Source: an uncultured Alphaproteobacteria bacterium (GTDB taxonomy: Bacteria > Pseudomonadota > Alphaproteobacteria > Bin95). From it: 64,000 nt of DNA. The notes beneath the pieces were generated by a model. That model worked only from the letters and a program-made list of their open reading frames with translations. It did not search any database and had not been told where the DNA came from. This document shows, piece after piece, positions 1 to 46,279 of this stretch. How positions within the stretch are numbered: position 1 is the first letter of the stretch; each line of letters begins with the position of its first letter. The DNA lies in contig CAWEBB010000032.1 in NCBI GenBank assembly GCA_963807085.1, positions 38,146-102,145 of the forward strand, written 5' to 3'. Both the position numbers and the translations under genes were made by a program.

Positions 1-1995
1 AGGATTCTTCAGCGGCAGCGCGGGCAAGCGCGATCCGTTCGCCTACCGGCTGCGCCTGCGCGCGGGCAATATGGAATGGGAGCGGGAGGATCCCTATGCC
101 TTCGGCCCGGTGCTGGGCGAGTTGGACGAATACCTGCTGGCCGAGGGACGGCATGAAGAGCTTTACCGCCGCCTCGGCGCACACCCGCTCACCCATGGCG
201 GCGTTGAAGGCACCGCCTTTGCTGTCTGGGCGCCCAATGCGCGGCGCGTCAGCGTCGTTGGCGACTTCAACGCCTGGGATGGGCGCCGCCATCCGATGCG
301 CCGCCGCTTTGCGCGCAGGGGTGTGGGAGCTGTTCGTGCCCGGTCTGGGCGAGGGCGCGCTTTACAAGTATGAAATCTTCGGCGTGCACGGCGACGTGCT
401 CCCGCTCAAGGCCGATCCGGTGGGGTTCGCGGCAGAGAAGCCGCCGGCCACCGCGTCCGTCGTCACCGGATTGCCCCGTCATGACTGGCAGGACGGGGAA
501 TGGATGCAGGCGCTGCCGACCCGTGCGCCAGTGCAGGAGCCCATCTCGATCTACGAGGTCCACCTGGGCAGTTGGCGGCGCGGCGAAGACGACCGAGTAC
601 TGTCTTACGAAGAACTGGCCGAGCAGCTGGTCGACTACGTGACCGAAATGGGCTTTACCCATGTCGAGTTTCTGCCGGTCAGCGAACATCCCGTTCACCG
701 GCTCGTGGGGCTATCAGCCGATCGGCATGTTCGCTCCGACATCGCGGCACGGCTCTCCGGCAGATTTCGCGCGGCTGGTGGACCGGCTGCACGGCGCGGG
801 CGTGGGGGTGATCGTGGATTGGGTGCCCGCGCATTTCCCCTCGGATGCGCATGGGCTGGTGCGGTTCGACGGCACCGCGCTTTACGAACACGACGATCCG
901 CGCCTTGGGTTCCACAAGGATTGGAACACGCTGATCTACAATTTCGGGCGAATCGAGGTCGCCAATTTCCTGCGCGCCAGCGCGCTTTACTGGCTGCGCG
1001 AATTCCACGTGGATGCGTTGCGCGTGGATGCGGTGGCCTCGATGCTTTACCTCGACTATTCGCGCAATCCCGGCGAATGGGTGCCCAATCGCTTTGGCGG
1101 GCGCGAGAATCTGGATGCCATCGACTTCCTGCGCCGCACCAACGTCACGGTGTCCGAACGTGCGCCCGGCGCGCTGACCATGGCCGAGGAATCCACCGCC
1201 TGGCCGGGCGTCAGCCGTCCGGTCGACCAGGACGGACTGGGTTTCGATTTCAAGTGGAACATGGGCTGGATGCACGACACGCTGGAATACATTGCCACGG
1301 ACCCGGTCTACCGCAAATACGACCACGGCAAGATGACCTTCGGCCTGCATTACGCGTTCTCCGAAAACTTCATCCTGCCGCTCAGCCATGACGAGGTGGT
1401 GCATGGCAAGGGGTCGCTGCTGGGCAAGATGCCGGGCGACCGCTGGCAAAAATTCGCGAACCTGCGCGCCTATTTCGCTTTCATGTGGACGCATCCGGGC
1501 AAGAAGCTGCTGTTCATGGGCTGTGAATTCGGGCAGCAGCGCGAATGGAACCATGACGCGAGCCTCGACTGGCACCTGCTGGACGATCCCGCCCATGACG
1601 GGCTGCAACGGCTTGTGCGCGACCTTAACCGGCTCTACCGCGCCATGCCGGCGCTCCATGCCGGCGACTGCGCGCCCGCGGGCTTTGAATGGATCGACGG
1701 CGGGGACAGCGAAAACAATGTCTTCAGCTATTTGCGCAAGGGCGGCGAGGGCGAACCGCCGGTGGCGGTGATTGCCAACATGGCGCCCGTGCTGCGCGAG
1801 GGGTTCCGCGTCGGCTTGCCGTCTGAGGGGCGCTGGCGTGAGCTAATGAATACCGATGCGGAGGACTACGGTGGCTCGGGCGCGGGCAATGGCGGCGGTG
1901 TGCTCGCCACCGGGCCCGGCACGCATGGCCGACCGGCCGCCGCAACGATCACGCTGCCGCCGCTCGCGGTACTCCTCTTCACGCCGGACGCCTGA
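1..1995 (+). pseudogene. glgB: 1,4-alpha-glucan branching enzyme GlgB; 5' end lies outside the window. The frame is broken twice (about nt 300 and about nt 690), each repairable by a 1-nt indel in a G or C run.
   Basis: GlgB motifs are spread over three frames: ...[25 protein letters not shown] (frame 2), GVWELFVPG...YKYEI...[12 protein letters not shown]...[14 protein letters not shown] (frame 3), then [16 protein letters not shown]...[11 protein letters not shown]...C-terminus (frame 1). Stop at 1993-1995. Confidence 0.85.
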
Positions 1996-1996
1996 C

Positions 1997-4080
1997 ATGC
2001 CCTTCAGAAGATTCCGCTGGCCGGATCGGAATCCCCGCTTGGCGCCACCTGGGATGGCTCGGGCGTCAATTTCGCCTTGTTTTCGGCCCATGCCACCAAG
2101 GTGGAACTGTGCCTCTTCGATCCGGCGGGCCGGCGCGAGACCGACCGCATCGAACTGCCGGAGAACACCCACCAGGTCTGGCACGGCTATCTGCCCTGGG
2201 TGCGCCCCGGCCAGTTGTACGGCTATCGCGTACACGGGCCTTACGCGCCAGAAGAGGGCCACCGATTCAACCCGAACAAGCTGGTGCTCGACCCCTATGC
2301 GATGGCAATGAGCGGGCGGCTGCACTGGCATGACGCGCTGTTCGGCTATCGCATCGGCCACAGGAGGGGCGATCTGAGTTTCGACCGGCGCGACAGCGCC
2401 TTCGTCATGCCCAAATGCGTGGTGGTCGATCCGGCGCATACCTGGGGCGACGACGTCCTCCCGCGGCATCCCTGGCATAAAACCATCATCTACGAGGCTC
2501 ATGTGAAGGGCATCAGCGCGCGCAACCAGGCGTTGCCGGAACAGGTGCGCGGCAAATTCGAGGGGCTGGCGCATCCGTCCACGATCGACCATCTGTCGCG
2601 CCTGGGCGTCACTGCCATCGAATTGCTGCCGGTGCAGGCTTTTGTCGATGACCGCTATCTGATTGAAAAGGGGCTGAGTAACTACTGGGGTTACAACACG
2701 CTGGGCTTCTTCGCGCCGGCGCCGCGCTACCTGACCCGTACCGGGGCGATCAACGAGTTCAAGCTGATGGTGCGTCGTCTGCACGAAGCCGGGATCGAGG
2801 TCATTATGGACGTGGTCTATAACCACACGGCCGAGGGCAACGAAATGGGGCCGACCCTGTCGTTCCGCGGTATCGACAATGCCAGCTATTATATCTTGGG
2901 CGACAACCCGCGCCATTACTACGACACCACCGGTTGCGGCAATTCCCTGGACATGCGCCACGGTCGGGTGTTGCAGATGGTAATGGACAGCCTGCGCTAC
3001 TGGGTTGAGGAATGTCACGTGGACGGCTTCCGCTTCGATCTGGCCACGACGCTGGGGCGCGAGCGCGAGGCGTTTAACATGCACGCGGTGTTCCTCGAAG
3101 CGACCCGGCAGGACCCGGTGCTGAGCCGCGTAAAGCTGATCGCCGAGCCGTGGGATACCGGGCCGAACGGCTATCAATTGGGCAGTTTCCCCCCCGGTTG
3201 GGCGGAATGGAACGACCGCTGGCGCGACACCGCGCGCGGCTTCTGGCGGGGCGACGCGGATACGGCGCGTGAACTGGCCGACGGATTGCTCGGCTCCTCG
3301 CGCCTGTTCGAAAATCTGGGTCAGCGCCCCTGGACCAGCGTCAATCTCGTCACCGCCCACGACGGCTTCACCCTGATGGACTTGGTCAGCTACAACGACA
3401 AGCATAACGAGGCCAACGGCGAGGACAACCGGGACGGCCACAACCACAACCTTTCATGGAATTGTGGCGTCGAGGGGCCGACCGACGATTCGGACATCCT
3501 CGCCCTCCGCGACCGGCAGCGGCGCAACCTGATGACGACGCTACTGATCTCGCAGGGAACGCCGATGCTGCTGATGGGGGACGAGCGCGGGCGCAGCCAG
3601 GATGGCAACAACAACGCCTATTGCCAGGACGTTGATTTCAACTGGCTCGACTGGAACCCGGAGGGACCGAGCGATGCCGCGTTCGAGCATTTCGTCGCCG
3701 GGCTGATCGCGATCCGGCGCTCGCGCGGCCTGCTGCAGTCGGACAAGTTCTATCACGAGGAACCCTATGGCCGCTTTCCTGCCCGGGCGCGGTGGCTGCG
3801 CCCGGACGGGGAGCAGATGGGCCCCGAGGACTGGGAAAACCCACAAACCCGAGCCATTGGCATGCATCTGTCGCAAGCGGGCGAGCAACTGCTGGCCTTG
3901 CTGAATGCCTCCGAGGACCAGGTGGATTTCGTCCTGCCGCAGGCCTCGGCGGCGGGTTGGCGGGTTCTGGTGGATACCGTGCACGGGCGGGCGTTGCCGC
4001 ATCCGGAGGAACTGGCGGTACCCGATCGGGTCGAACTCCCCGGCAAGGCGGTTGTGTTGCTGGAAAGTGTGGGACCATGA
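1997..4080 (+). CDS. glgX: Glycogen debranching enzyme GlgX. The track start is TTG 2077, but the conserved N-terminal motif KIPLAGSESPLGATWDGSGVNFALFS lies upstream in frame with no canonical start. ATG 1997 is one frame off, so a 1-nt indel in the 'cccc' run right after the ATG is likely.
   Basis: GlgX/isoamylase GH13 motifs (LGATWDG.GVNFALFS, VYNHT, GFRFDLA, EPWD) are present. Stop overlaps the treZ start (ATGA). Confidence 0.8.
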
Positions 4081-5859
4081 CCCGCGAGCGAGAACCCGGC
4101 TGGGGCGCGACGCTGACGCAAGACGGGGCGCGGTTCGGCCTCTGGGCGCCAGCGCAGGGAGCGGTAACGCTGCATGTGGATGGGCGCGATGTGCCGATGA
4201 CGCGCGACGTGACGCGCGACAGGGGCGGCTGGTTTACCTGCACCGTTGCCGGCCTTGGCGCTGGCGCTTCCTACGCCTTCGTGCTGGAGGACGGGCGCGC
4301 GGTGCCCGACCCGGCCGCCCGCGCGCAGGAGGGCGACGTGCACGGAGCGTCGCTTTTGGTCGACCCTTCGGCCTATCGCTGGCGGCATGACTGGGCCGGG
4401 CGGCCCTGGGAAGAGGCAGTAATCTACGAGCTGCATGTAGGCACCTTCACCGAACAGGGCACATTCGGCGCGGTGATCGACCGCCTGGCTGCGCTGGCCG
4501 ACCTCGGCGTCACCGCGATCGAGTTGATGCCCGTTGCCCAGTTCGCCGGCAATCGCGGCTGGGGCTATGACGGCGTGCTGCCCTATGCGGTGCATCCCGC
4601 TTATGGGCGGCCCGACGACCTGCGCGCGCTCGTGGATGCGGCGCATGGGGCGGGGCTGATGGTGCTGCTCGACGTGGTCTACAACCATTTCGGCCCCGAG
4701 GGGAATTACCTGAACCTCTACGCGCCCGATTTCTTCGATTCCGCCCGCCAGACCCCCTGGGGCGCGGCCATCGCGTATGACCGTGCGCCGGTGCGGCGGT
4801 TTTTCGTGGAAAACGCGCTTTACTGGCTGCGCGAATACCGGCTGGACGGGTTGCGGCTGGACGCCATCGACCATGTGCACGACCGCTCCGATCCGGAAAT
4901 CCTGATCGAGATCGCGCAAGCGGTGCGGCGGGAATTCCCGGCCCGGGCGATACACCTGACCACCGAGGACAACCGCAACGTCACCCATCTGCACGAACGC
5001 GACGGGGAAGGCGTATGCCTCTATACCGCCGAATGGAATGATGATTGGCACAACACCGCCCACGTGATCGCCACCGGCGAGAGTGCGGATTATTACGGCG
5101 ATTTCGCCGATACCCCGCATGCCCATCTGGCGCGCGCGCTGGCCGAAGGGTTCGCGTTTCAGGGTGAGCTTTCGCAACTGACTGACCGGCCGCGCGGCGA
5201 ACCGAGCGCCTACCTGCCGCCCGCGGCTTTCGTCGATTTCCTCCAGAACCACGACCAGATCGGCAATCGGGCCTTTGGCGAGCGTATCGACCGGATGGCG
5301 GACGAGAACATCGTGCAGGCGCTGCACGCTATCCTGCTGCTGTCGCCGCATGTGCCGCTGCTGTTCATGGGCGAGGAATATGGCGAGACCCGCCCCTTCC
5401 TGTTCTTCACCGATTTCCACGGCGAGCTGGCCGACGCGGTGCGCGAAGGGCGGCGGCGCGAATTCGCCGGGTTCGAGGCGTTCAGCGGAGAGTTGGCCCC
5501 AATCCCCGACCCGAACGCCTGGGACACCTTTGCCGCTTCTCGGCTTGACTGGTCAGAGCGCGAGGGTTCCGGCTTTGTGCGGCCTGGCGGAAACCCGCAA
5601 GATGCTGGAACTGCGCGCGCGGGAAATCGTGCCGCATCTGGCGGGAGTGGGCGGCCATAGCGGCCATATTGTCGAGAGCGAAGCGGAAGTGGTGGCGGTG
5701 GACTGGCACCTGAACGGCGCCAATCTGCATCTACGCGCCAACCTCTGTGACGACGTGAACGCCATGCCGCCCGCGCCCGGCCGCGTGATCTGGGGCGAGC
5801 ATCGGGAGCGGGACGCGTTCGCTCCCTGGCAGGTTCGTGTCACCAAGGCCGCGCCATGA
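4077..5859 (+). pseudogene. treZ: Malto-oligosyltrehalose trehalohydrolase TreZ, with one frameshift at about nt 5560 (extra G in a ggg run).
   Basis: ATG at 4077 overlaps the glgX stop. GH13 TreZ motifs are present (GWGYDGVLPYAVHPAYG, VLLDVVYNHFGPEGNY, LRLDAIDHV). C-terminal ...LDWSEREG continues in the next frame as ALCGLAETRKMLELRAREIVPHL...VTKAAP*, with the stop overlapping the malQ ATG. Confidence 0.8.
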
Positions 5860-7898: not shown

Positions 7899-10236
7899 AT
7901 GCAGCGCCTGCCGTCTTCCTGTTATCGACTGCAACTGCGCAACGGCGTGGATTTCGCCGCCGCCGAACGGCTACTGCCCTACTTGATGCGGCTGGGAATC
8001 AGCCATCTCTACCTGTCGCCGGTCTTCGCCGCCCAGCCCGGATCAACCCATGGCTATGACGTGATCGACCCCACCCGCATCGAGCCGGGGCTAGGCGGAC
8101 GGGCGGGATTCGACCGGCTGGCGGAGGCAGCGCAGGCGCAAGGTATCGGCATCGTTCTGGACATCGTGCCGAATCACGTGGCCTTCACCCTGGAAAACCC
8201 GTGGCTGCGGGACCTACTGGCGCAGGGGCGCGCCAGCCGCTACGTGCGCCATTTCGACATTCTGCCGGATCGGCCCCTGGCGCTACCGATGCTGGAAGCG
8301 CCGTTCGAGGAGGTGCTGGAAAAGGACGGTTTCTCCGTCGAGACGAGCCCGGACGGGCCGGTTCTGGTGCGCGGGGCGCTGCGCGTGCCGCTCGACCCGG
8401 CGACGCTGCCACCCGATCCGCCGAAGCTCCACGACCGCGCCGCGATCCGCGCTCTGCACGACCGCCAGTTCTGGCGGCTCTGCCACTGGCGGGCCGAGCG
8501 TGACGCGATCACGCATCGGCGATTCTTCAACATCACCGGCCTGATCGGCGTGCGTGTCGAGGACGAGGAGGTGTTCGAGGACACCCATCGCCTGATCTTC
8601 GATCTGGTCGATACGGGCGCGGTGGCGGGATTGCGCATCGACCATATCGACGGGCTGGCCGGTCCCGGCGTCTATCTGCGCCGCCTGCGCGCGCGTCTTC
8701 CCGAAATTCCGATCTGGTTGGAAAAGATTCTAGCGCCGGACGAGAGCCTGCCGGACTGGCCGGTAGAAGGCACCACCGGCTATGTGCTGGCCCGCGATAT
8801 CGGGCAGGTGCTGACCGATGGCGACGGGGTGCGACGGCTCGATGCGCTCTACCGATGCCAAACCGGGCGGCAGGAGGGGTTCGGGCGGCTACGTCACCGC
8901 GGCGAAGCGCGCCGTTCTGGAGACCGAGCTTTCAGCCGAACTGTGGCGCTTGCAGGGCCTGATCGGCGCGATCGCGGCGGCGGACCGGACCGCCTGCGAA
9001 TACGGCCCCGAGACCTGGCGGCAGACGATCTTGAGCCTGATCGCGCATTTGGGACGGTATCGGACATACCTGGACGGCGACAGCCCGCGCGCTGAGGATG
9101 TCGCGGCGTTGAATGCCGCCACCGACGCTGCGGCGGGGGCACAGCCCGACCGCCGGCCGCTGGATTTCATGCTGCGCGCGCTGCTGGACCCTGGCGCGGC
9201 GGCCGGCCCGTTGCGCCTGCGATTTCAGCAGGTGGCCGGCGCGGTGATGGCAAAGGGGCAGGAGGACACCGCCTTTTATCGCTACAATCGCCTGCTGTCG
9301 GCAAACGAGGTCGGTGCGGAGCCGGACCTGCCCGCCATCGATGCCGCCACGTTCCACCGCCGGATGCAGACCCGCGCGCTGAAGATGCCCCACGGGCTGA
9401 GCCTGACATCGAGCCATGACACCAAGCGTTCCGAAGATGCCCGCATGCGGATTGCGGCGTTGACTCACCATCCCCCGTCCATCGCTGCGCTGATCGACGC
9501 GGCGCAAAAGGTCGAAGGGGCGGAGGCCGTCGATCCCAACCTGCGCTGGTATCTGGTCCAGTCGCTCTGGGCGATGCAGCCCGGTGCCGGATCAGCCGCG
9601 GAACTGGCCGACCGGCTGTGCGACCATGCCACCAAGGCGATGCGCGAGGCCAAGGAAGGCACCACCTGGCAGGACCCGGACGAGGGCTATGAGAGCGCGG
9701 CGCTCGCTTACGCCCGCGCACTGGCCCGCGCCTTCGCGCCGCCGCCCGGTGAAACCGCCGAAGCCGCCCGCACCGCCGAACGGCTGTCGCTGGTGCAGCT
9801 GGCGCTGAAACTGACGCTGCCGGGAATTCCCGACATCTATCAGGGATGCGAGATCAGTAACTATCGGCTGACCGACCCCGACAATCGCGCTGCCGTCGAT
9901 TTCGACCGGCTGGCGGCCGCGCTGGACGATGCCGGCCCGCTGCGCCCGCTGGATCGTCATAAGCTCTGCCTCACGCGCACGGTCCTGCACCTGCGCCGCG
10001 ACGAACCGGCGCTGTTCGCCGACGGAAGCTATGAGCCGCTGGACGCACCTTTTGGAGCGTTGGCGTTCCGGCGTCGCCTCGACCGACGGTCCGTGCGCGC
10101 GGTGGTGACACTTGGCCAGGCGCTCTCCCCCAAAGGCAGCCGGCCCGACAGCGGCGAGACACGGCTTTGGCCGCCGGAGGGTCTGTCGGGGGAGGGGCTC
10201 CCGGGGGAGGCGGTCGCCCTGTTCTCAGCAGGTTAA
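7899..10236 (+). pseudogene. treY: Malto-oligosyltrehalose synthase TreY, with one frameshift at about nt 8895 (extra G in ttcgggcgg). The track splits it into 7899..9095 and 8818..10236.
   Basis: N-terminal part has YRLQL...GISHLYLSP...GSTHGYDV.DP...IVLDIVPNH. C-terminal part has ...EGTTGY...AAKRAVLETELSAEL...SSHDTKRSEDARMRI... and ends 10236. Confidence 0.8.
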
Positions 10237-15856: not shown

Positions 15857-17059
<1,203 letters not shown>

Positions 17060-28870: not shown

Positions 28871-28998
28871 CGAAATACCTTTCACAGAATGCAGAAACGC
28901 GCGTCTTTCGGCAGAACCGGCGCCCGCTCCAACCAATAAAGTCCGAGGGGTGGAAAGGTTCCGCGCACGGCCCAAGCCGCTGAAGTCCAGGCGGTGCC

Positions 28999-29946: not shown

Positions 29947-30028
29947 CGCAGAAAGTCTCCCGGATTGAGTTTTGGCCGAACCGCCGAAATACTGATGGTA
30001 ATCGCATCCTTTCGGGAGGCTTTCCGCG

Positions 30029-31312: not shown

Positions 31313-31338
31313 AGCGATGACACCGAAAGGAAACACCC

Positions 31339-32235: not shown

Positions 32236-32399
32236 CTCGACCCGCTGCCGCTAAGCCGCGGCCAAGCATCCCGGCTGCAGTGATCGATTTTTCCCGCGCT
32301 TTCTGATAGCCTTTCGGGCTTTGTTGACTGACATCCGGCCCGGAGGCCCGCACTATTTCTAGCCGCCTGTCCCCTAAAGAGCGGGAACGCTTTCATAAT

Positions 32400-32879: not shown

Positions 32880-32903
32880 CCCGATTGATGGAGGAGCCTA
32901 ACC

Positions 32904-33398: not shown

Positions 33399-33433
33399 CG
33401 CCGGGTCGTTGATCGGGGTGCCGTTCGGCTGTA

Positions 33434-33940
33434 TCAAATCTTAATGTGGACGGTCGCGAACATGTAGGCGAACGCCGCCAAGGCAAGCAAAATAACGATG
33501 TGCGGGATAAAGTCTTTCACCGTCGTCCGCCGCTCCGTGATCTGTGCCCGCTTCACCAATGTCTGACGCTCCTGCTGTTGCAGGTCACGGATTTCAGTTG
33601 CAATCCCCGGCAGATGCCGCTTGACCCAGTCCCCGAAGTCGGCATCGGCATATTCCCACGCGACGGAAGACGATCGGTCCTGAACGTCGACGCTCGCCCG
33701 GAACTGCTGCACTCCCGCTGTTGTGTCGTCGAGAGAAACCGGGCGCTTGGTGAGGCATAGCCGCCATTCACTCGTGCGCTTGCCGGGTTGCCATTGCACA
33801 AGGCATTCCTGGCCCTCCTGCAGCGGCAGCCGGCGGGGCGGCAGCGCGACACACTGATCGCTATCCAGTGACGCCAGGGCGCTGAGCGGGTCCGTCAGGT
33901 CGTTGTCAAAGTGCTCAGCGTCCAACTGCTCATTTGCCAT
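33434..33940 (-). CDS. Hypothetical protein with a C-terminal transmembrane helix
   Basis: ...FIPHIVILLALAAFAYMFATV hydrophobic tail. The start choice (ATG 33940) is uncertain. Confidence 0.35.
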   Translation of the reverse strand: MANEQLDAEHFDNDLTDPLSALASLDSDQCVALPPRRLPLQEGQECLVQWQPGKRTSEWRLCLTKRPVSLDDTTAGVQQFRASVDVQDRSSSVAWEYADADFGDWVKRHLPGIATEIRDLQQQERQTLVKRAQITERRTTVKDFIPHIVILLALAAFAYMFATVHIKI

Positions 33941-34073
33941 TATTTGTTCCGGTGGCTGCGCGACATTTGGGCAGATTCCGCGCGAAGGGCCGCATTGCCC
34001 GCTTGGAGAATATAGCGTTGCTGCTATACCGCCTACCAATCCGCGTGGCCAGAGGTTCGATACGCGCCCGTCC

Positions 34074-35033
34074 TTGTCTGTGTTGCTCATCACATCAAAC
34101 CGCCTTGGCGATGCTGTTCTCACCACCGGGGCGGTTCCCTATTTGGCTCAGCGTTACCCGCAAAGCCACATCGCCGTGGCGTGCGGTGCGCTTCCGGCGC
34201 CCCTGTTCGAGGCCATGCCGGAGGTATCCGAGGTGTGGCTGGTGGAAAAACAACCGCGCGGCGGCCACTGGTGGCGGCTTTGGCGCAGGGCGATCGGCCG
34301 GCGATGGCGGCATGTGGTGGACCTGCGCGGCTCGGCCTTTGCCTATACGGTATGGGCCGGGCGGCGCACGGTTCTCCATACCGATCGGACGCTTCGTCAT
34401 CGGGTCGCCCATCTGACGGAGGTGCTGGGCGCAAGCGAGCCCGTGGCACCGCGTATATGTTGGCGGCCGGAACACGCACGGGAGGCGGACCGCCTGCTCG
34501 TCACGCAATGCCCGGTACTCGCGATCGGGCCGACCGCGAACTGGCGCGGCAAGCAGTGGCCCGCGGCGAAGTTCGGTGAGCTGGCGGCGCGGCTTACCGG
34601 CCCCGACGGGCCGTTGCCAGGCGCCCGTGTCTTGGTGGCGGGTGCGCCCAATGAGGCGCCTATGGCGCAAACCGCTATAGCGGCTTTGCCGCCGGAACGC
34701 ACCATTGCCGCCTTCGGATGGCCGCTCCCGGTGCTGGCCGCGGCTTTTTCCAAAGCGTCGCTTTATGTAGGCAACGACTCTGGCCTGATGCATTTGGCAG
34801 CGGCGGTGGGCGTTCCGGCGCTCGGCTTGTTCGGTCCGTCGCGGGACGAGCACTACGCGCCCTGGGGAGCCGGCAACCGCGTCGTCCGCACGCCGACCTC
34901 CTATGGGGATTATCTGATCGCGGGGCGTCTGGACACGGCTGTTGCCGCGCGGCTGATGGACGATATTCCGGTCGAGGAAGTTTACTGCGCCGCCGTTGGT
35001 CTTTTGGAAGCTTCCGAGCGGAGGAAAGAATAG
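34074..35033 (+). CDS. Glycosyltransferase family 9 (LPS heptosyltransferase-like)
   Basis: VLLITSNRLGDAVLTTGA...GNDSGLMHLAAAVGVPALGLFGPS... Confidence 0.7.
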   Translation: MSVLLITSNRLGDAVLTTGAVPYLAQRYPQSHIAVACGALPAPLFEAMPEVSEVWLVEKQPRGGHWWRLWRRAIGRRWRHVVDLRGSAFAYTVWAGRRTVLHTDRTLRHRVAHLTEVLGASEPVAPRICWRPEHAREADRLLVTQCPVLAIGPTANWRGKQWPAAKFGELAARLTGPDGPLPGARVLVAGAPNEAPMAQTAIAALPPERTIAAFGWPLPVLAAAFSKASLYVGNDSGLMHLAAAVGVPALGLFGPSRDEHYAPWGAGNRVVRTPTSYGDYLIAGRLDTAVAARLMDDIPVEEVYCAAVGLLEASERRKE

Positions 35034-35063
35034 CGTGCTTTCGCCGTGTTGGCGCCCCACGTC

Positions 35064-35075
35064 ACATTGACGGTG
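35064..35075 (+). repeat. 12-mer acattgacggtg, copy 1 (upstream of secA; next to a second GTCAC-N-ATTGAC half-copy)
   Basis: An exact 12-mer is found again at 38260..38271. Confidence 0.5.
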
Positions 35076-35235
35076 CGGGCCGTCACGATTGACTTGACAG
35101 TGTGCCCTGCCTATTTCACGTGCAGCCCTAGCCGCGCTCTCTGGCGCGTTAAGGGACGATTTTCGGTGAAGTCCGAGCGGGACATGCTGGTTCGTTTCCA
35201 GCCGATAGCCATACCCTAAGTTTACGAGGACCGCC

Positions 35236-37983
35236 ATGATCGGCGCGCTTGCCAAGCGAATCTTTGGAACTGCCAATGACCGGACGCTGAAGCGCCTGGA
35301 CACGAATATCGCCGCAATCAACGCATTGGAGCCGGAGACCGAGGCGCTGGACGATGCGGCGCTGCGGGCGCGCACTGACACGTTCCGCAAACGGCTGGCG
35401 GATGGCGAGACGGTCGACGATCTGCTGGTTGAAGCCTTTGCGACGGTTCGGGAAGCCGCCAAGCGCACGCTCGGGCAGCGTCATTTCGACGTGCAGTTGA
35501 GCGGCGGCATGGTGCTGCATCAGGGCAAGATCGCCGAGATGAAAACCGGCGAAGGCAAGACCCTGGTTGCCACACTGGCGGTCTACCTGAACGCACTTTC
35601 CGGGCGCGGCGTCCATGTGGTGACCGTCAATGACTACCTGGCCAAGCGCGATGCCGCCTGGATGGGACAGATTTACGAATTTTTGGGCCTGTCGGTCGGC
35701 TGCATCGTGCATGGCCTCGACGACACTGCCCGCCGGCAGCAATACGCGTGCGATGTCACGTATGGCACCAACAACGAATTCGGCTTCGACTATCTGCGCG
35801 ACAACATGAAGTTCCAACTGGAGGAAATGGTTCAGCGGGAATTCAACTTCGCCATTGTCGATGAAGTGGATTCGATCCTGATCGACGAAGCGCGGACGCC
35901 GCTGATTATCTCCGGCCCCGCGGAAACCTCGTCGGACCTTTATGTCCGCATCGACGCCTTCATGCCCAGCCTCCAGCCGGAGCACTATGAGAAAGACGAG
36001 AAAGCCCGCGCCACTACCCTGACCGATGCGGGCGTCGAGCATATGGAGCAGGTGATGCAGGACGCGGGCCTGATCACCGACGGCACGCTCTACGACATCA
36101 CGAACATTTCCATTCTGCACCACATCAACCAGGCCTTGCGGGCGCACGTGCTGTTCGAACGCGACCGGGACTACATGGTGCGGGACGGCAAGGTGATCAT
36201 CATCGACGAGTTCACCGGCCGGGCAATGGAAGGCCGCCGCTATTCCGAGGGTCTGCACCAGGCGCTGGAGGCGAAGGAGGGCGTCGAGGTTCAGCTTGAA
36301 AACCAGACGCTCGCGTCGATTACCTTCCAGAATTATTTCCGCGCCTATAAAAAACTGGCCGGCATGACTGGAACCGCCATGACGGAGGCGGGCGAGTTCG
36401 ACGAAATCTACGGTCTGGAAGTGGTCGACATTCCCACCAACGTCCCGGTCTCCCGCAAGGACCAGGACGACGAAGTCTACCGCACCTTCCGGGAAAAGAA
36501 CGAAGCGATCCTGGACGAGATCGCCGCTTGTCACGAGCGCCGGCAGCCGGTGCTGGTGGGGACGATCTCAATCGAGAAGTCGGAAGAGCTCTCCACCCTG
36601 CTCAAGGCGAAAAAGGTTCCGCACCAGGTGCTGAACGCCCGTTACCACGAACAGGAAGCGATGATCATCGCCCAGGCGGGCAAGCCGGGCGGAGTGACCA
36701 TCGCCACCAACATGGCCGGCCGCGGCACCGATATTCAGCTTGGCGGCAACGCCGAAATGATGGCGGCGGAACGCTGCCAGTCGATCACGGACGAAAGCGA
36801 GCGCGAGCGTGTCTTCGCCGAAGTACAGGCCGAAGTGGACCGGGACAAGGAGATCGTGAAGCAGGCAGGCGGCCTTTACGTCATCGGTACGGAACGCCAC
36901 GAAAGCCGGCGCATCGACAACCAGCTGCGCGGCCGTTCCGGCCGCCAGGGCGATCCGGGCGGCTCGAAGTTCTTTGTCTCCCTCGAAGACGACCTGATGC
37001 GCATTTTCGGGTCGGAGCGCATGGACGGCGTGTTGCGTCGCCTCGGCCTGAAGGAAGGCGAGGCCATAGTCCATTCCTGGATCAACAAGGCGCTAGAAAA
37101 AGCCCAGCAGAAGGTCGAAGCCCGCAACTTCGAAATCCGCAAGAACCTGTTGCGTTATGACGACGTGATGAACGACCAGCGCCGGGTAATCTACGATCAG
37201 CGGCGCGAGATCATGCGCGCGGAGGACGTGCAGGAAACTGTCGTCGACATGCGTGAGCAGGTGCTGGACGGTCTCGTCGCCACCCATATGCCCGAAAAAG
37301 CGCTGCCGGATCAGTGGAATACCACCGGGTTGCACGAAGAAATGCTGCGGATTTTCGGGCTGGACCTGCCCGTTCAAGCGTGGGCCGAGGAAGAGGGCAT
37401 CGCCGACGAGGAAATGCACGCCCGTCTTTCCAAGGCCGTTGAGCAGAAGATGGCGGAAAAGGCTGCCAACTGGGGTCCGGAACTGATGCGGATGGCGGAA
37501 AAAAGCGTCCTGCTTCAGTTGCTCGACCAGTTCTGGAAAGACCACCTGTTGCAGCTCGACCATCTGCGCCAGGGCATCGGCCTTCGGGCATATGCGCAGC
37601 GTGATCCGCTGAACGAGTACAAGTCGGAGGCCTTTGGCCTGTTCGAATCGATGCTGACACGGCTGCGCGAGTCGGTGACGGGGGCGCTGTCCCATCTGGA
37701 ACTGCGGATGGAGGCGCCGGTCGGCATGCCGCAAACCCCGGATGACAGCCAGTGGCAGGAACAGCACGACGAGATGTCGGCATTGGCTGCCGACGAAGGC
37801 GAACTGACGGATGCAGAGGCCGGCGCGGCCACCGCGTCGCTGCCGCGGCCGGTTCGCACGGCGGCAGCGGCCGCCACCATCGATCCGGCCGATCGCTCCA
37901 CCTGGGGCAAGGTTCCGCGCAATGCGCCTTGCCCGTGCGGTTCGGGGAAAAAGTACAAGCACTGTCACGGCGCCCATGTTTGA
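35236..37983 (+). CDS. secA: Preprotein translocase ATPase SecA
   Basis: Full 915 aa, including the C-terminal [14 protein letters not shown] zinc motif. The ORF is intact. Confidence 0.95.
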
Positions 37984-38072
37984 GCACGGACAACCGCGCG
38001 CGAAATGTGTTTGCGCAAACAGTCGCGGCATGTGTAGACTTTTCGTCTCAACACTGACCGGAGGATCAGCGC

Positions 38073-38249
38073 ATGAAAACCATTGCAACTCTCGCCGCGG
38101 CGGCCTTTGTCTTCGCGGTCGGCAGCGCGTCGGCCTGTGAGTGGAACAAGACGGCAGAACAGTCGGTGCAGTCGCCGGACAATTCGAAAATGGCCTCGGT
38201 GACCGGGCCTCAGACAACCGGATCTCAAACGACACCGGTCAAGAAATAG
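38073..38249 (+). CDS. Small (58 aa) secreted hypothetical protein, not in the ORF track
   Basis: GGAGGA RBS; MKTIATLAAAAFVFAVGSASA signal peptide then CEWNKTAEQS...QTTPVKK*. A strong terminator follows directly. Confidence 0.5.
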   Translation: MKTIATLAAAAFVFAVGSASACEWNKTAEQSVQSPDNSKMASVTGPQTTGSQTTPVKK

Positions 38250-38259
38250 GTCGTACCTA

Positions 38260-38271
38260 ACATTGACGGTG
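38260..38271 (+). repeat. 12-mer acattgacggtg, copy 2 (just after the small secreted-protein gene)
   Basis: Exact match to 35064..35075, same orientation. Confidence 0.5.
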
Positions 38272-38274
38272 AAA

Positions 38275-38313
38275 GGGCCGCTGCGCTGCATGCGCGGCGG
38301 CCCTTTTCTTTTT
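38275..38313. terminator. Rho-independent terminator
   Basis: gggccgctgcgctgcatgcgcggcggccc hairpin followed by ttttcttttt. Confidence 0.7.
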
Positions 38314-38332
38314 GAGCGGCTCGCGTGGCCAC

Positions 38333-39823
38333 TCAGGTCATGTTGAACATCATCGTCTTCTTGCGCGTGAAATGCTCCAGCATGGCTTCGAGTGAGGCCT
38401 CCTTGCCGAGGCCGGAGGATTTCACGCCGCCATAGGAGATGTTCGGCTGTACCACCAGGTTCTGGTTGACCTGCACCAGCCCCGCCTCCAGCCGCCTTGT
38501 CGCGTCCAGCGCCTTTTTCATGTCGTTGGTCCAGACGCTCGCCGCCAGGCCGTATTCCGTGTCATTTGCCTGGGCGATCACGTCCTCATAGTCGGACCAT
38601 TCAATGATGCACGTCACCGGGCCGAATATCTCTTCGCGGCATAGGGTGGCCTCGTTCGGAATGCCGGTAAAGATAATCGGCTGGACGAACAGACCCTCCT
38701 TGGTCTCGGCCTCGGCCAACTGCCCGACCGGATGCGCCTTGGCGCCCGGCATTTTCAGGCCGATATCGATATAGCCCTTCACCTTCTCGTACTGCTCCGG
38801 CGAAATGATGGAGCCGATGTCTGTTTCCTCGCGCATGGGATCGCCGATGCGCATGGCATCAACCTTCGCCTTGAGCTTGTCGACGAAGCTGTCGTGCAGC
38901 TTCTCGTGCACGAAGATCCGGCTGGCGGCGGTGCAGGACTGGCCCTGGCGGGTGAAGCGCATGCCGGTGATTGCGCCGTCCACGGCCTTCTCCAGGTTCG
39001 CGTCCTCCAGCACGATCATTGGTGACTTGCCGCCCAGCTCGAGGGTGACGGGGATTAGCTTCTCCGCCGCGGTCTTATAGACGATGCGTCCGGTCTCGAC
39101 CGAGCCGGTGAAGGTCACCTTGCCCACGTCCCTGTGCGCGACCAGCGGCCCGCCGCATTCCGGGCCGAAGCCGGAAAGGATGTTAAAGATACCTGCCGGC
39201 AGCACCTCACCCAATATCTGAGCGACCCGCATGGCCGTGAACGGCGCTTCTTCAGCCGACTTCACCACCACGCCGTTGCCGGCGACCAGCGCCGGGGCGA
39301 CCTTCAGCGCCATCAGCAGCAGCGGCACGTTCCACGGGATGATGGCGCCGACGACGCCGATGGGCTCGCGGATCGTGACGGTCAGCGAGTCCTGGTTGAA
39401 CGGCACGGTTTCGCCCTTCAATTCGGGCGCGAGGCCGCCAAAGAAGGTGAACACGTCCGCCAGCACGCCGCATTCCACCCGGCATTCCGTGCGGATCGCC
39501 TTGCCGGTCTCCAGCGTCATCAGCCGGGCCAGTTCCTCCACGTGGTCTTGCAGCCGGCGGCCGCATTCGGTGACGAGCTTGCCGCGATCCCTGGCATTCA
39601 TCGCACCCCAGGCCGTTTGCGCTTTTTTGGCGGCGGTGACGGCCTCGTCCACGTCCTGCCTGTCGCCGTTCGCCGCCTGGGCGATGACCTTGCCGTTCGC
39701 AGGGTTGATGACGTCGAACGTGGTGTTGGAGAGCGCCGGCGTCAGGCGGCCGTCGATGAAGTGGTTGGCGGCCAGTTTCTTCAGCAGGGCTTCCGGGTTG
39801 GTGTTGGGGGTGATCGTGGTCAT
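38333..39823 (-). CDS. NAD(P)-dependent aldehyde dehydrogenase
   Basis: ELGGKSP, catalytic ...GQSCTA..., and FTGS..TG motifs. Confidence 0.85.
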   Translation of the reverse strand: MTTITPNTNPEALLKKLAANHFIDGRLTPALSNTTFDVINPANGKVIAQAANGDRQDVDEAVTAAKKAQTAWGAMNARDRGKLVTECGRRLQDHVEELARLMTLETGKAIRTECRVECGVLADVFTFFGGLAPELKGETVPFNQDSLTVTIREPIGVVGAIIPWNVPLLLMALKVAPALVAGNGVVVKSAEEAPFTAMRVAQILGEVLPAGIFNILSGFGPECGGPLVAHRDVGKVTFTGSVETGRIVYKTAAEKLIPVTLELGGKSPMIVLEDANLEKAVDGAITGMRFTRQGQSCTAASRIFVHEKLHDSFVDKLKAKVDAMRIGDPMREETDIGSIISPEQYEKVKGYIDIGLKMPGAKAHPVGQLAEAETKEGLFVQPIIFTGIPNEATLCREEIFGPVTCIIEWSDYEDVIAQANDTEYGLAASVWTNDMKKALDATRRLEAGLVQVNQNLVVQPNISYGGVKSSGLGKEASLEAMLEHFTRKKTMMFNMT

Positions 39824-39886
39824 GAAAGATTTCCTGCTTCGCGCTTCGCCCTCATCCTCCGACCGGATCAAGGTGAAGCAATTGGT

Positions 39887-41260
39887 CTAAGCATACCGCT
39901 GCCGCAGCATCGTGAAGACACCGCGCACCGCCTGTGCCTCGCCGCCTTTCGGGCGTCCTGGCTTCGCGCTGTTGTTCCAGGCCATCATATCGAAATGAGC
40001 CCAGGGAGTGGTCGGGCTGACGAAGTGCTCCATATAGAGCGCCGCGGTGATTGCCCCGGCGAAGCCGCCTTCCGAGACGTTGTTCACGTCGGCCACATCG
40101 CTCTTCAGCAGCTCCTTATAGGGCTGATGCAGCGGCAACCGCCAGACGGGGTCCAAGGTAACCTCGCCCGCGCTCAACATATCGGCGGCAAGGGCGTCAT
40201 CGTTGCAGAAAAGCGCGGGCAGGTCCGTGCCCAGCGCAACGCGGGCGGCACCGGTCAGGGTTGCGCAATCCAACAGGATTTCCGGTCTTTCGGAATCCGC
40301 TTCCGCCAGTGCATCGCAGAGGACTAGGCGGCCTTCCGCATCCGTGTTACCGACCTCGACCGTCAAGCCCTTGCGCGTGCGAATCACATCCAGCGGCCGC
40401 ATGGCGTTGCCGCTGACGCTGTTTTCGACCGCCGGGATCAGCACGCGCAGCCGAACGGGCAGGCCGGTAGCCATGATCATGTGGGCCAGCCCCAGCACGT
40501 TGGCAGCCCCGCCCATATCCTTCTTCATGCGCAGCATGCCGCTTGCCGGTTTCAGGTCCAGGCCGCCCGTATCGAAGCAGACGCCCTTGCCGACCAACGT
40601 GACCTTGGGTGCGCGCTCGTCGCCCCAGCGCAGATCGATCAGCCGGGGCGCGCGTGCGGCGGCCCGGCCGACGGCGTGGATGGTCGGGTAGTTGTTGGCG
40701 AGCAGTTCGTCGCCGACCAGCTCGATCACCTCCGCGCCGAACTGTCTGCCCAGCGCGTGGACCGCGGCGCAAAGTTCTTCCGGACCCATATCGTTGGCCG
40801 GTGTGTTGATCAAATCCCTGGCGAGGCACACGCCGTTGGCGACCGCTTCGGCCACACTACGGTTGGCTGCACCCGGCCACATCAGCCGTGCGGCGGGCGC
40901 TTTGACTTCCTTATACTTCCCAAACGTATAGCCGCCGAGCAGGAAGCCGGTCGCGACGGCCGTCGCCGCCTCTGCGTCCCAGTCGCCCGCCAGCCGGTAA
41001 TCGGCATTTGGCAGCTTCGCCGGCAGGCCGCCCGCGCTCCACAGCGGCTCTTCCATGCCGGCCAGCACGGCCGCGATGGCGCCGTCCCTGCCCGGCAGCA
41101 CGCAGATCTGGCCCGGCTTGGCGGCAAAGTCGGTCGCCTTGGCCCATGCTCGTTCCGTCTCCGGCCGGGCGGCGATCCAGGCTTCCCACTCCTCCGCTTT
41201 CAACAGGTGCAGTGGCACCGCCTGTGGCGCGGAATCGATCAGAAGTGGGTTTATCGGCAT
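39887..41260 (-). CDS. pepA: Leucyl aminopeptidase (M17)
   Basis: NTDAEGRL, VGKGVCFDTGG. Confidence 0.85.
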   Translation of the reverse strand: MPINPLLIDSAPQAVPLHLLKAEEWEAWIAARPETERAWAKATDFAAKPGQICVLPGRDGAIAAVLAGMEEPLWSAGGLPAKLPNADYRLAGDWDAEAATAVATGFLLGGYTFGKYKEVKAPAARLMWPGAANRSVAEAVANGVCLARDLINTPANDMGPEELCAAVHALGRQFGAEVIELVGDELLANNYPTIHAVGRAAARAPRLIDLRWGDERAPKVTLVGKGVCFDTGGLDLKPASGMLRMKKDMGGAANVLGLAHMIMATGLPVRLRVLIPAVENSVSGNAMRPLDVIRTRKGLTVEVGNTDAEGRLVLCDALAEADSERPEILLDCATLTGAARVALGTDLPALFCNDDALAADMLSAGEVTLDPVWRLPLHQPYKELLKSDVADVNNVSEGGFAGAITAALYMEHFVSPTTPWAHFDMMAWNNSAKPGRPKGGEAQAVRGVFTMLRQRYA

Positions 41261-41280
41261 CGGTTTCGTTGCTTCCTGCT

Positions 41281-42051
41281 TTAGGCTACCAGCCGCGAGA
41301 CTTCCAAGACCGCGGCATCGAGCATCGCCAGTTGATCCGGCTCCGAAAGGCGATGGTCACCGCCTTTAACATACGTAATCCGCACATCCGTGCTGGCCAG
41401 CTTTTCCGCCAGCACCAGCGAGTCTTTCCACGGTACTGCATCGTCCTCCAGCCCGTGCAGAATGCGAACCGGCCCGGTGAACGGGTGCCCGTCTCCGCTC
41501 AACACCAGATTGTTCTTGCCGTCGTCCAGCAGCCTTTTCGTGATGATCTGGGGATCGTCGGCGTAGGGCGTCGGCCGGCCCGTATGGCCCTGCGCGGCCA
41601 GTTCCGCGTGCTGCTCGGCTGAAAGCGATTCTTCCATCCGCAGCACGAAATCCGGCGCGGGCGCGATGCCGACCAGGCCCCGCACCCGCTCCGGCAGCAT
41701 TTTTGCCAGCAACAGCATGATCCAGCCGCCCATGGACGAGCCGACCAGCACGTGCGGACCGGTGGTTCGGGCTCCAATGACGGCGGCGGCATCGCCCGCC
41801 CAGTCGGAAAGGCAGGCTTCGGCAAAAACGCCACCCGATTGGCCATGGCCGCGGTAGTCCAGTCTGGTGTATTGCTGGCCCCGTTCCTTGCACGTCGCCT
41901 CCAGATGCAGCGCCTTGCCGCCTTCCATGTCCGACATGAACCCGCCCAGAAACACGACGCCGGGCAGCCGCGCGCCCGCGCCGCGGGGGGCGGTATAATG
42001 AAACGCGATCGGAACGCCGTCGCGGTCCAGAAAATCGGGTTGCCGGTTCAT
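41281..42051 (-). CDS. Alpha/beta-fold hydrolase
   Basis: GSSMGG nucleophile elbow. The start MNRQPDFL was chosen to avoid overlap with the divergent glycosyltransferase. Confidence 0.65.
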   Translation of the reverse strand: MNRQPDFLDRDGVPIAFHYTAPRGAGARLPGVVFLGGFMSDMEGGKALHLEATCKERGQQYTRLDYRGHGQSGGVFAEACLSDWAGDAAAVIGARTTGPHVLVGSSMGGWIMLLLAKMLPERVRGLVGIAPAPDFVLRMEESLSAEQHAELAAQGHTGRPTPYADDPQIITKRLLDDGKNNLVLSGDGHPFTGPVRILHGLEDDAVPWKDSLVLAEKLASTDVRITYVKGGDHRLSEPDQLAMLDAAVLEVSRLVA

Positions 42052-42091
42052 CGGTCTATCCAGAATGGCGGAATGTGCAGCAGAGGACATT

Positions 42092-43289
42092 ATGCCGGAC
42101 CAGTCTAACACCGTCCCCGCGGAGGAAGCCACCGCCCGCTTGCCGCCCGGCGCGACGATCCTGCAGGTGCTGCCGGCCATGGGAAACGGCGGCGTCGAGC
42201 GCGGCACGATCGAGGTGGCCCGGGCAATCGTCCAGGCGGGCGGGCGGGCGCTGGTCGCCTCTGCCGGCGGTCCGAACGTCGCCCGGATCGAGAGGGTGGG
42301 CGCTGAGCACGTCATGTTGCCGCTCGCGAGCAAGAACCCCGCGCGCATCATTGCAAACCGCCGGCGATTGCGACGGCTGATTGCAGAGCGGGACGTGTCG
42401 CTGGTGCACGCCCGCAGCCGTGCGCCGGCGTGGGCCGCCGGGCCGGCGGCGCGACGGGCCGGCGTTCCGTTCGTCACGACCTTTCACGGCACCTACAACG
42501 AAGGCTTCTGGCTCAAAAAGCGGTACAACCGGATCATGGCCTCGGGTGATCGGGTCGTTGCCATTTCCGAGTTTATCGCTGGCCTGATCCGAGAACGCTA
42601 TGGCACGCCGGACGAGCGCTTGCGAGGTGATCCACCGCGGCGCGGACCTGGATGTTTTCCGCCCGTCCGCCGTGGGGCCCGGCCGGTTGCTGGGGCTGCA
42701 GAACGCATGGGGCATTCATGAGTACACACGGGTGATCCTGCTTCCCGGCCGTCTGACCCGCTGGAAGGGGCAGGGGGTGCTGATCGCGGCCTTGCCGGAA
42801 TTGCGGCGGCGGCAGGACATTTCCGACGTGGCGGTGGTGCTTGCGGGCGATGCGGAGGGGCGGACCGACTACGTGGCCGAACTCCGGCGCCAGTGCTGCA
42901 AGCTCGGCCTGTCCGGCGGGCAGGTGGTCTTTGCCGGCCAATGCAACGACATGCCGGCCGCCATCATGCTGGCAGACGTGGTGGTCTCCGCCTCGATCGA
43001 GCCGGAGGCGTTCGGCCGGGTGATGGCGGAGGCCGGGGCTATGGGCAAGCCGGTTGTGGCTTCCGCTATCGGTGCGGCGCACGAAATCGTCGTGGCCGGT
43101 GAAACCGGCTGGCTCGTGCCGCCGGGCGAGCCCAAGGCAATGGCCGATGCGCTGGGCGCCGCCCTCAATTTGCCCGAGGCAAAGCGGGAAATCTTGGCTG
43201 CGCGGGCGATCGAGCGGGTGGCCTCCTCCTTTTCGGTCGAAGCGATGTGCGACAAGACCCTGGCCGTCTACCGCGAACTGATCGGGTAG
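42092..43289 (+). pseudogene. Glycosyltransferase family 1 (LPS-core-type), with a frameshift at about nt 42610
   Basis: N-terminal ...GTPDERL is in one frame and ...VIHRGADLDVF...EAFGRVMAEAGAMGKPVVAS... continues in the next (EX7E region). Confidence 0.7.
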
Positions 43290-44238: not shown

Positions 44239-44320
44239 TTTTGGTCGTTTTCCTTGCCCTCCATGCCGCGCTGCACCAAATTACACCTTTTCCTTACCCA
44301 ACCGAAACGGAGCCACTTCA

Positions 44321-46279
44321 ATGCCGGATTCCGCATTGCATCAGGTCACGATTACGCTGCCGGATGGCGCGACTCGCGCCTATGCGGCCGGCACCACCGT
44401 GGCTGATGTTGCCGCGTCTATCTCCAAGAGCCTGGCCAAAAAGGCGATCGCCGCCAAAATCAATGGCAAGGTCCGCGATCTCGCGACGCCGCTCGACCAT
44501 GACGCGAACGTCGCGATTTTGACCCGCGACGACGAGGACGCGCTCGAACTGATCCGGCACGACGCCGCGCATGTGATGGCGGAGGCGGTGCAGGAACTTT
44601 ACCCCGGCACCCAAGTTACGATCGGCCCGGCGATCGAGCACGGCTTCTATTACGACTTCGCCCGCGACGAGCCGTTCACGCCCGAAGACCTCGAAAAGAT
44701 CGAGGCCAAGATGCACGATATCATCAAGCGGGATGAGGCCATAGAGCGCGAGGTTTGGGACCGGGACGAGGCGATCAAGCATTTCGAGGCCATGGGCGAA
44801 GCTTTAAGGCCGAATTGATCCGCGATCTGCCAGAGAGCGAGGACATTTCGATCTATCGCCAGGGCGAGTGGCACGACCTGTGCCGCGGCCCGCACATGCC
44901 GTCCACCGGCCATGTCGGCACGGCGTTCAAGCTGCAGCGGTTGGCGGGCGCCTACTGGCGCGGCGATTCGCAACCGCGCGCAGCTACAGCGCATCTACGG
45001 CACGGCCTGGCGCAACGAAAAGGAACTGAAGGCTTATCTGACCCAGTTGGAGGAGGCCGCGAGGCGCGACCATCGCCGCCTGGGCCGCGAAATGGACCTG
45101 TTCCACCTGCAGGAGGAAGCGGTCGGCAGCGTGTTCTGGCACCCGAAGGGCTGGACGGTGTACCGGCTGTGCGAAGAATACATGCGCCGGCGCCTGGAAG
45201 ACGGCGGCTATGTCGAGGTAAAGACGCCGCAGCTGATCGACCGCGTGCTCTGGGAGCGCTCCGGCCACTGGGAAAAATTCCGCGAGCACATGTTCATCGC
45301 CGAGACCGAGGACGAGCGTGTGCTTGCCGTGAAGCCAATGAATTGCCCCGGCCATGTCCAGATCTTCAATCAGGGCGTGAAGAGTTACCGCGACCTGCCC
45401 CTGCGCATGGCGGAGTTCGGCTCGTGCCACCGCAACGAGTCCTCTGGCTCCATGCACGGCATCATGCGCGTGCGGGCGTTTACCCAGGACGACGCGCATA
45501 TCTTCGCGACGGAAGACCAGATTACGGACGAAACCCGCATCTTTTGCGAGTTGCTGCTGTCGGTCTACAAGGATTTCGGCTTTGAGGACGTGGTGGTCAA
45601 ATTCTCGGACCGGCCGGAAATCCGCGTCGGCGAGGATGCCGTCTGGGACAAGGCCGAAGGCGCGCTGCGCGACGCGATCGAGGCGGTTGGCCTGTCGTAT
45701 ACGATGAACCCGGGCGAAGGCGCCTTCTATGGCCCCAAGCTGGAATTCGTGCTGAAGGATGCCATCGGCCGCGACTGGCAGTGCGGCACGTTCCAGGTGG
45801 ACTTCGTGCTGCCGGAGCGGCTTGATGCCAGCTATGTGGGCGAGGACGGCGAGAAGCATCGCCCGGTCATGCTGCACCGCGCGATCCTCGGCTCGTTCGA
45901 GCGGTTCCTCGGCATCCTGATCGAGAACTATGCCGGCCGCTTCCCGCTCTGGCTGGCGCCGGTGCAGACGGTGGTGGCGACCATCACCAGCGACGCCGAC
46001 GCCTATGCCGGGCAGGTGGCCGCCGCTTGCACCAGGGCCGGCCTGCGCGTTGAGACCGATCTGCGCAACGAAAAGATCAACTACAAAGTGCGCGAGCATT
46101 CGGTGACGAAGGTGCCGACCATGCTGGTCGTCGGCCGGCGGGAGGCCGAGCAGGGAACCGTGGCGCTGCGGCGACTGGGTGGCAAGGACCAGGAAGTGTT
46201 GCCGCTAGACCAGGCGATCGCGTCCCTGGTGGACGAGGGACGCATGCCCGATGGCGGGAAGCCAGACGGAGAAGGTTAG
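44321..46279 (+). pseudogene. thrS: Threonyl-tRNA synthetase, with two frameshifts (about nt 44805 in a T run and about nt 44960)
   Basis: TGS/editing N-terminus, then LIRDLPE...[18 protein letters not shown] in a second frame, then the class-II core and anticodon-binding domain in a third. Confidence 0.9.

Follow-up and report, generated by a model that had tools for sequence, protein, structure and literature searches.

Bacterial pseudogenes are usually deletion-biased. The pseudogene-rich genomes of host-restricted bacteria, such as Mycobacterium leprae and Sodalis, show nonsense changes, larger deletions, and integrations of insertion sequences, with further decay after the first lesion, while their essential genes are spared. 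Frame breaks can also be introduced by sequencing. The residual errors of well-covered Nanopore and PacBio assemblies lie in homopolymers (PMC9262707; PMC8574707), those of high-GC PacBio genomes being mainly deletions of G or C (PMC8574707), and low-coverage long-read metagenome bins need polishing against frameshifted gene calls (PMC9262707). We analyzed a stretch of 64,000 nucleotides (nt) from an uncultured alphaproteobacterium (contig CAWEBB010000032.1 of assembly GCA_963807085.1, positions 38,146 to 102,145; hereafter the window), in which an initial reading of the sequence (the original prediction) had pointed to dense single-base frameshifts in conserved and essential genes. We found 17 proven single-base insertions or deletions (indels). 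As judged by alignment to orthologs, these frame breaks are very probably consensus errors in the deposited contig of a metagenome-assembled genome (MAG), the genes being intact in the organism.

The indels comprise 15 insertions and 2 deletions, with one further probable deletion at the start of glgX (Table 1). All of them affect a single base, and no larger lesions were seen. They were mapped by a protein-to-DNA dynamic program allowing one-base skips, in which every orthologous open reading frame (ORF) was aligned with the window DNA. Each of the 17 interior events was flanked on both sides by 35 to 45 well-matching residues, except that at 17741, where the reference ORF ends 9 residues further on. 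The identity of the flanks ranged from 0.5 to 0.98 over 45 residues, and conservation downstream of each break was as high as upstream. At most sites the residues at the junction were identical to those of a reference (e.g., SEH/PFTG, LVDA/GGIG, RGDS/NR, HSAAI/LPGQ, and AAITP/KT). The removal of 15 bases and the addition of 2 gave ORFs near ortholog length, i.e., AspC of 400, the thiamine diphosphate (ThDP) enzyme of 567, ThrS of 652, Def of 174, and GT4 of 398 amino acids (aa), compared with 400, 567, 647 to 650, 172, and 397 to 402 aa, respectively, for the called orthologs, which are single ORFs in the syntenic relatives (650 and 647 aa for ThrS, 402 and 397 aa for GT4). These one-base edits yielded ortholog-like proteins (60 to 91% identical) without other damage, as expected of an artifact. 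None of the genes contained an internal stop, since all the stops in the alignments fell in upstream or edge sequence, and no nonsense substitution was found in ca. 55 kb of aligned coding sequence. The essential single-copy genes thrS (two events, 169 nt apart) and def (one event) were affected, and the SDR gene carried three events within 38 nt.

Truncated products of the broken genes were found in the public protein collection (ThrS of 165, AspC of 212, ThDP enzyme of 178, TreZ of 527, TreY of 398, and Def of 52 aa). Each of them came from one contig only, of 762,095 bp (NCBI and ENA records), which also carries SecA, PepA, ALDH, portal, and other proteins of the window that are intact. With the truncated products on public record, the frameshifts can be assigned to the assembly as deposited. 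At the syntenic positions of the relatives L170, L171, and L172, the genes are intact. Among the 120 best ThrS matches, none was a second thrS from the 762,095-bp contig, a check that the original prediction had proposed. Clean junctions, repairs to ortholog length, the lack of internal stops, the events in thrS and def, and the origin of all truncated products in a single contig argue strongly for consensus error over pseudogenization. The original prediction had likewise judged the pseudogenization of all these genes implausible and errors likelier, and the one-base lesions without stops or decay, in thrS and def among others, agree with it. We infer that the indels are absent from the DNA of the organism, as we do for the assembly step that would have produced them (see below).

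The GC content of the window (65%) crowds raw ORF lists with spurious frames. Codon usage was trained on long, clear ORFs and used in a seven-state Viterbi segmentation (six frames plus noncoding), which replaced a GC3 frame plot that was too noisy for frame calling. One stop-to-stop piece was taken per coding segment, and 59 of the 69 pieces (from 12.9 kb to the end of the window) were scanned with Pfam. The first ten pieces, which make up the glg/tre operon, were checked against orthologs rather than Pfam, as were secA and the IOR gene, which lay outside the Pfam scan. The references were species-representative genomes for the glg/tre operon (L001, L008, L004, L006, and L019), a metagenome contig for the ThDP enzyme, SDR, COQ9, and def genes (L090), L170 (a 5.16-Mb contig) and L171 from cinA to the portal gene, L172 and L173 from the hydrolase gene to prpB, and L174 for the virion module. 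Together, the ortholog alignments covered 54.7 kb of the window. Relatives retrieved through prpB showed no synteny with the broken genes. As controls, intact relatives were aligned with each other (ca. 76 kb, summed over pairings), and frameshifts were called there only at ORF edges, near or ahead of gene starts, where the flanks in most cases matched poorly.

The original prediction had counted at least 15 frame breaks. Frameshift-aware alignment with orthologs recovered 14 of the 15 that it listed, the remaining one, at the start of glgX, being only probable. In glgB, the ORFs of Paracoccus and Lichenihabitans gave three high-scoring segment pairs in three frames (tblastn), and three references set the breaks at 308 to 311 and at 690. 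In glgX, a one-base offset separates the frame of the sole ATG (1997) from that of the conserved N terminus and body, and the first in-frame start (TTG at 2077) would cost the conserved N terminus; in the orthologs, 9 to 18 residues precede the PLGA motif. A one-base deletion near 1999 to 2016 is therefore probable from the reading frames, no close reference being available to fix its position. The ortholog residues of treZ are contiguous across the frame change in both L001 (588/589) and L008 (501/502).

Pfam profiles were split in the same manner. In aspC, positions 2 to 140, 145 to 200, and 208 to 357 of Aminotran_1_2 lay on three pieces in two frames, and an intact ortholog of the same length as the repaired protein is present in L172. 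Positions 1 to 117 and 171 to 309 of Sulf_transp were in different frames in yeeE. In the ThDP enzyme, the frame of TPP_enzyme_N was not that of the M and C domains, with exact residue matches on both sides of the break in L090 and L172. In def, positions 42 to 154 of Pep_deformylase were on one piece and the N terminus was on another, and the junction LVDA/GGIGLAAPQ was matched exactly on both sides in three references (L082, L090, and L172). Glyco_transf_4 and Glycos_transf_1 were in different frames in the GT4 gene, of which L170 and L171 have the intact syntenic orthologs of 402 and 397 aa, respectively. In thrS, the TGS, tRNA_SAD, and tRNA-synt_2b core domains lay on three pieces, and the repaired protein was 90 to 91% identical, over its full length, to ThrS proteins of 647 to 650 aa. 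The three insertions in the SDR gene give a net shift of +3, so its ORF stays open with about 12 garbled codons. Its translation as deposited reads ...ACDGRRRRMRRASSIWLV..., and the shifted frames read AC/TAAVDACGGR/LD/WLV, compared with C/LAAVDACGGR/LD/WLV in L090 and C/IEAVEACGGK/LD/WLV in L172.

Table 1. Interrupted genes and clean blocks of the window (+1, inserted base, in parentheses within its sequence context where given; -1, deleted base)
Feature	Position	Strand	Observation
glgB (5' end cut by the window)	1..1995	+	+1 at ~308 (CGC(T)TTG) and +1 at 690 (CAT(C)CCG)
glgX	1997..4080	+	probable 1-base deletion between 1999 and ~2016
treZ	4077..5859	+	+1 at ~5583 (CGG(C)CTG)
treY	7899..10236	+	two pieces; +1 at ~8892 (CTA(C)GTC); weaker alternative, G-run position 8883-8885
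aspC-type aminotransferase	15857..17059	-	+1 at 16570, -1 at 16388; 60 codons between them out of frame
yeeE/Sulf_transp gene	17192..18378	-	+1 at 17847 and 17741; alignment to L172
ThDP enzyme (acetolactate-synthase-like)	18561..20265	+	+1 at 18996 (ATA(C)CTG)
SDR gene	20271..21032	+	three +1, at 20475, 20506, and 20513; absent from the list of the original prediction
COQ9-family gene	21029..21839	-	+1 at ~21137 (GTA(C)GGG); L090 and L172 orthologs and Pfam COQ9 domain
def (peptide deformylase)	21888..22413	-	+1 at 22290 (GCG(C)GGC)
GT4-family glycosyltransferase	42092..43289	+	+1 at 42626 (CGA(G)GTG)
thrS	44321..46279	+	-1 at ~44802 (GCT TT_ AAG), +1 at 44971 (TCG(C)AAC)
Clean block: rpsU, prp genes, amidase, cinA, heptosyltransferase, secA, ALDH, pepA, hydrolase	22301..42600		78% aligned, no interior event, Pfam domains complete
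Clean block: thrS 3' part, infC, IOR gene, luciferase-like gene, T7-like virion module	45001..64000		90% aligned (L170, L171, L174), no interior event

The indels cluster. Fourteen of the proven events (15 with the glgX start) lie between 0 and 22.3 kb, 10 of these between 16.4 and 22.3 kb, and the remaining three lie between 42.6 and 45.0 kb. No event was found at 22.3 to 42.6 kb or at 45 to 64 kb (32.8 kb aligned to orthologs, the phage-like block included). The two largest gaps, summed, were larger than expected under uniform placement (P = 3e-4), and distances between neighbors of less than 400 nt were in excess (P = 0.002), in agreement with the nonuniform error rate of the original prediction. 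Its list of clean genes also held: no frameshift lies inside secA, pepA, the IOR gene (1,174 aa), or the virion block, and none inside ALDH, judged on its complete Pfam match only. Complete single-piece Pfam matches were obtained for Aldedh (7 to 460 of 461), Peptidase_M17, the T7-type portal (4 to 489 of 489), and the capsid (1 to 293 of 293). A comparison between blocks gave 25.5 expected events versus 0 in the clean blocks; since these blocks were defined from the data, we relied on the gap statistic. Homopolymer density was rejected as the cause of the patchiness, because the density of runs of at least 4 bases varies among the four blocks only from 7.1 to 9.6 per kb, much too little to account for 17 events in one pair of blocks and 0 in the clean pair. 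GC content was rejected as well, because GC-rich clean stretches exist (e.g., 26 to 28 kb, at 0.68). The gap in GC between indel-bearing and clean blocks is only ca. 2.5 points, and the indel sites are ca. 2 points GC-richer than average (nominal P of 0.002 to 0.02, the events not being independent). With run density and GC alike across the blocks, composition does not explain the patchiness.

The position of the extra bases within codons bears on how the errors may have arisen. For 12 insertions out of 15, the inserted base is unlike the third-codon base before it, and the protein is the same whichever of the two is deleted. The resulting pairs resemble alleles: CGC/CGT, CAT/CAC, CGG/CGC, CTA/CTC, CCG/CCC, ATA/ATC, CGA/CGG (twice), GAT/GAC, GTA/GTC, GCG/GCC, and TCG/TCC. 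This pattern was found for a fraction of only 0.36 to 0.46 of random insertions into the intact genes of the window (binomial P = 0.0006 to 0.0085, with a small n and ortholog-inferred positions), and a third codon position is also a possible placement for each of the two proven deletions. Codon phase matters to natural polymorphism but not to sequencing noise, so the enrichment in third positions suggests an origin in strain alleles. The patches would then be stretches where the reads of two coassembled strains differ, mostly at synonymous third codon positions. A consensus or polishing step might write out both alleles in tandem (+1) or drop both of them (-1), and in the clean stretches the strains would be identical or only one of them would be present. 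We tentatively favor this strain-allele route, with somewhat less than even confidence. The other artifactual route, ordinary random read noise surviving at very low depth, is almost as probable. The patches measure a few hundred bases at one scale and ca. 20 kb at another, as expected if consensus quality tracks local read support. The length of the contig and an error density of ca. 28 per 100 kb are in keeping with a long-read metagenome assembly in which read support was limited.

A methylation motif or palindrome was rejected as the cause. Six-base palindromes touch 5 of the 17 sites, compared with an expected fraction of 0.136 (P = 0.07), and the four-base test gave P = 0.21. GANTC adjoins only 2 sites, as seen by eye, and no motif is common to the sites. 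The palindromes at 16388, 17847, 20506, 21137, and 44802 are GTCGAC, GAATTC, GAGCTC, CGTACG, and AAGCTT, respectively.

The indels could instead be genuine mutations, left by rapid pseudogenization in a mutator state or during reductive evolution, with the essential functions supplied by other copies or by a partner. They do stand in the deposited sequence, on which this analysis was based, and gene inactivation occurs in the group, as indicated by an apparently real in-frame TAG in the yeeE of a relative. This explanation is nevertheless very unlikely, given that only one-base events occur, that insertions outnumber deletions by 15:2 (15:3 with glgX), against the usual bias of pseudogenes, and that there is neither nonsense change nor decay past any break, in addition to the repeated events in thrS and the SDR gene, the event in def, and the finding, noted above, that the best ThrS matches include no second thrS from the contig. 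A localized variant, i.e., a recent burst of real +1 insertions in certain chromosomal segments (through a mutator or repair defect) that inactivated thrS, def, and about ten other genes in a cell surviving on second copies or on a partner, is if anything less probable.

Homopolymer-biased platform error, in which runs of identical bases are miscounted (as with Nanopore R9, 454, or Ion Torrent), was the explanation preferred by the original prediction, which placed most of the breaks in G/C or T runs. Frameshifted gene calls in Nanopore assemblies are usually put down to such miscounts (PMC9262707), and some of the sites can be read as a run changed by one base (T2 to T3 at 308, C2 to C3 at 690, and T4 to T3 at 44802, if a T was lost). 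The window contains 540 runs of at least 4 bases, 115 of at least 5, and 18 of at least 6. None of the 17 events is at any of these 540 runs, the two C7 runs and the G7 run are in genes that keep their frame at that point, and the A8 run falls between genes. Within 2 nt, the longest run was of 1 base in 3 events, 2 bases in 10, 3 bases in 4, and at least 4 bases in none, as expected from random positions under the same measure (fractions of 0.14, 0.57, 0.23, and 0.07, respectively). The inserted base was unlike both of its neighbors in at least 8 of the 15 insertions, and 6 of the 15 duplicated a neighbor (the next base in all of these, never the previous one), compared with ca. 44 to 56% by chance. 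The indels avoid homopolymers and are not miscounted ones, which leaves platform error of this type highly improbable. Of the five example strings of the original prediction, two lie at a break (catcccgtt and gctttaagg), one is ambiguous, being a weaker alternative position (ttcgggcgg), and two lie away from the break (caggggtg and gagggttcc). Programmed recoding, in which ribosomal frameshifting or transcriptional slippage restores the frame, has in its favor that both halves of each gene are still conserved and nothing further, and can be regarded as excluded by the orthologs (L170, L171, L172, L090, L001, and L008), which are single-frame at the same positions, the 17 sites sharing no motif or slippery run and +1 and -1 both occurring, sometimes within one gene.

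Several points weigh against the interpretation of the indels as consensus errors or against the route proposed for them. The case is built on the consensus sequence rather than on reads, which would show depth, strain mixture, and platform. An exact look-up found the repaired proteins in no other public assembly and thus provided no independent intact alleles; nor did the species turn up in a further assembly, the best ThrS match being 91% identical. Rich in insertions and lying outside homopolymers, the indels are unlike the residual errors reported for well-covered Nanopore and PacBio assemblies (PMC9262707; PMC8574707). Clustering is weaker once the events are merged into 11 clusters (P = 0.022). 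The third-position signal is moderately significant and depends on break positions inferred from orthologs of 60 to 90% identity, and the insertions at 17847, 17741, and 20475 do not fit it.

The indels are very probably an assembly artifact rather than a biological feature, and would then be of no consequence for how the organism functions. Nevertheless, annotation of the contig shows about a dozen conserved genes, thrS and def included, as fragments or pseudogenes, and the SDR protein carries 12 wrong residues without a visible frame break. Frameshift artifacts in MAGs need not sit in homopolymers, and polishing or filters restricted to homopolymers would miss all those described here. If the third-codon-position pattern recurs in other assemblies, it could provide a flag for strain-collapse errors that requires only the sequence.

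Other features of the window and its relatives were noted. Positions 1 to 12669 hold an operon in the order glgB-glgX-treZ-malQ-treY-treS. The segment from treZ to treS has syntenic counterparts in Roseovarius spongiae (L008) and in the genome of an uncultured alphaproteobacterium (L001), a partial glgX being present at the start of each locus. The closest TreS match among the species-representative genomes of GTDB has 86% protein identity, and none is closer, indicating that the source genome is not a GTDB species representative. One might speculate that the genome did not pass quality filters on account of its many broken genes. Proteins clustering with its S21 come under the names Stellaceae or Reyranella. 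In the yeeE gene of L172 and L173, an in-frame TAG stands in place of the TGG codon (Trp) found at 17711 to 17713 of the window, and gene calling accordingly split the gene into products of 217 and 128 aa. A long contig and a short-read Logan contig, perhaps derived from one sample, agree exactly in this sequence. The change looks like a genuine nonsense mutation, in contrast to the one-base indels of the window.

The phage-like block (53114 to 64000, running off the end of the window) is a T7-type (podovirus-like) structural module. Its genes encode an S24/HTH repressor-like protein, small ORFs, portal, Bbp19-like protein, scaffold, capsid, tail tubular A-like and B-like proteins, a gp14-like protein, and a tail fiber with a GDSL domain. 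In L174 (5414 to 19914) the module extends to a large terminase of 491 aa and spans ca. 14.5 kb in all, in which no polymerase, primase, or integrase was seen. It occupies the same locus in L170 (18695 to 21953) and a different one in L174. The capsid cluster (at least 90% identity) has 42 members, from NCBI, JGI/IMG, ENA, Logan, MGnify, and Tara records. The module may represent a defective prophage that has been conserved, or else a podoviral-type element resembling a gene transfer agent.

Compared with known systems, the window resembles the genomes of Mycobacterium leprae and Sodalis in that many conserved genes are interrupted, but the mixed lesions, the decay that follows them, and the sparing of essential genes seen in those genomes are all lacking in it. 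Artifacts of haplotype or strain collapse offer another comparison: apparent frameshifts were reportedly removed by allele-specific assembly in one case (PMC8445201), and in the window the indels are patchy and 12 of the 15 insertions look like tandem alleles, although three insertions misfit and the likeness is drawn here from the consensus sequence. The indel errors of long-read assemblies and bins (PMC9262707; PMC8574707; PMC12007338) differ in being centered on homopolymers in published cases, whereas in the window none of the 17 events is at a run of at least 4 bases, and 15 of the 17 are insertions, often unlike both neighbors. In other respects the two are alike, since in both single-base indels split conserved genes into adjacent ORFs, essential genes are struck, and quality tracks read support, with a density in the window far above any plausible biological rate.

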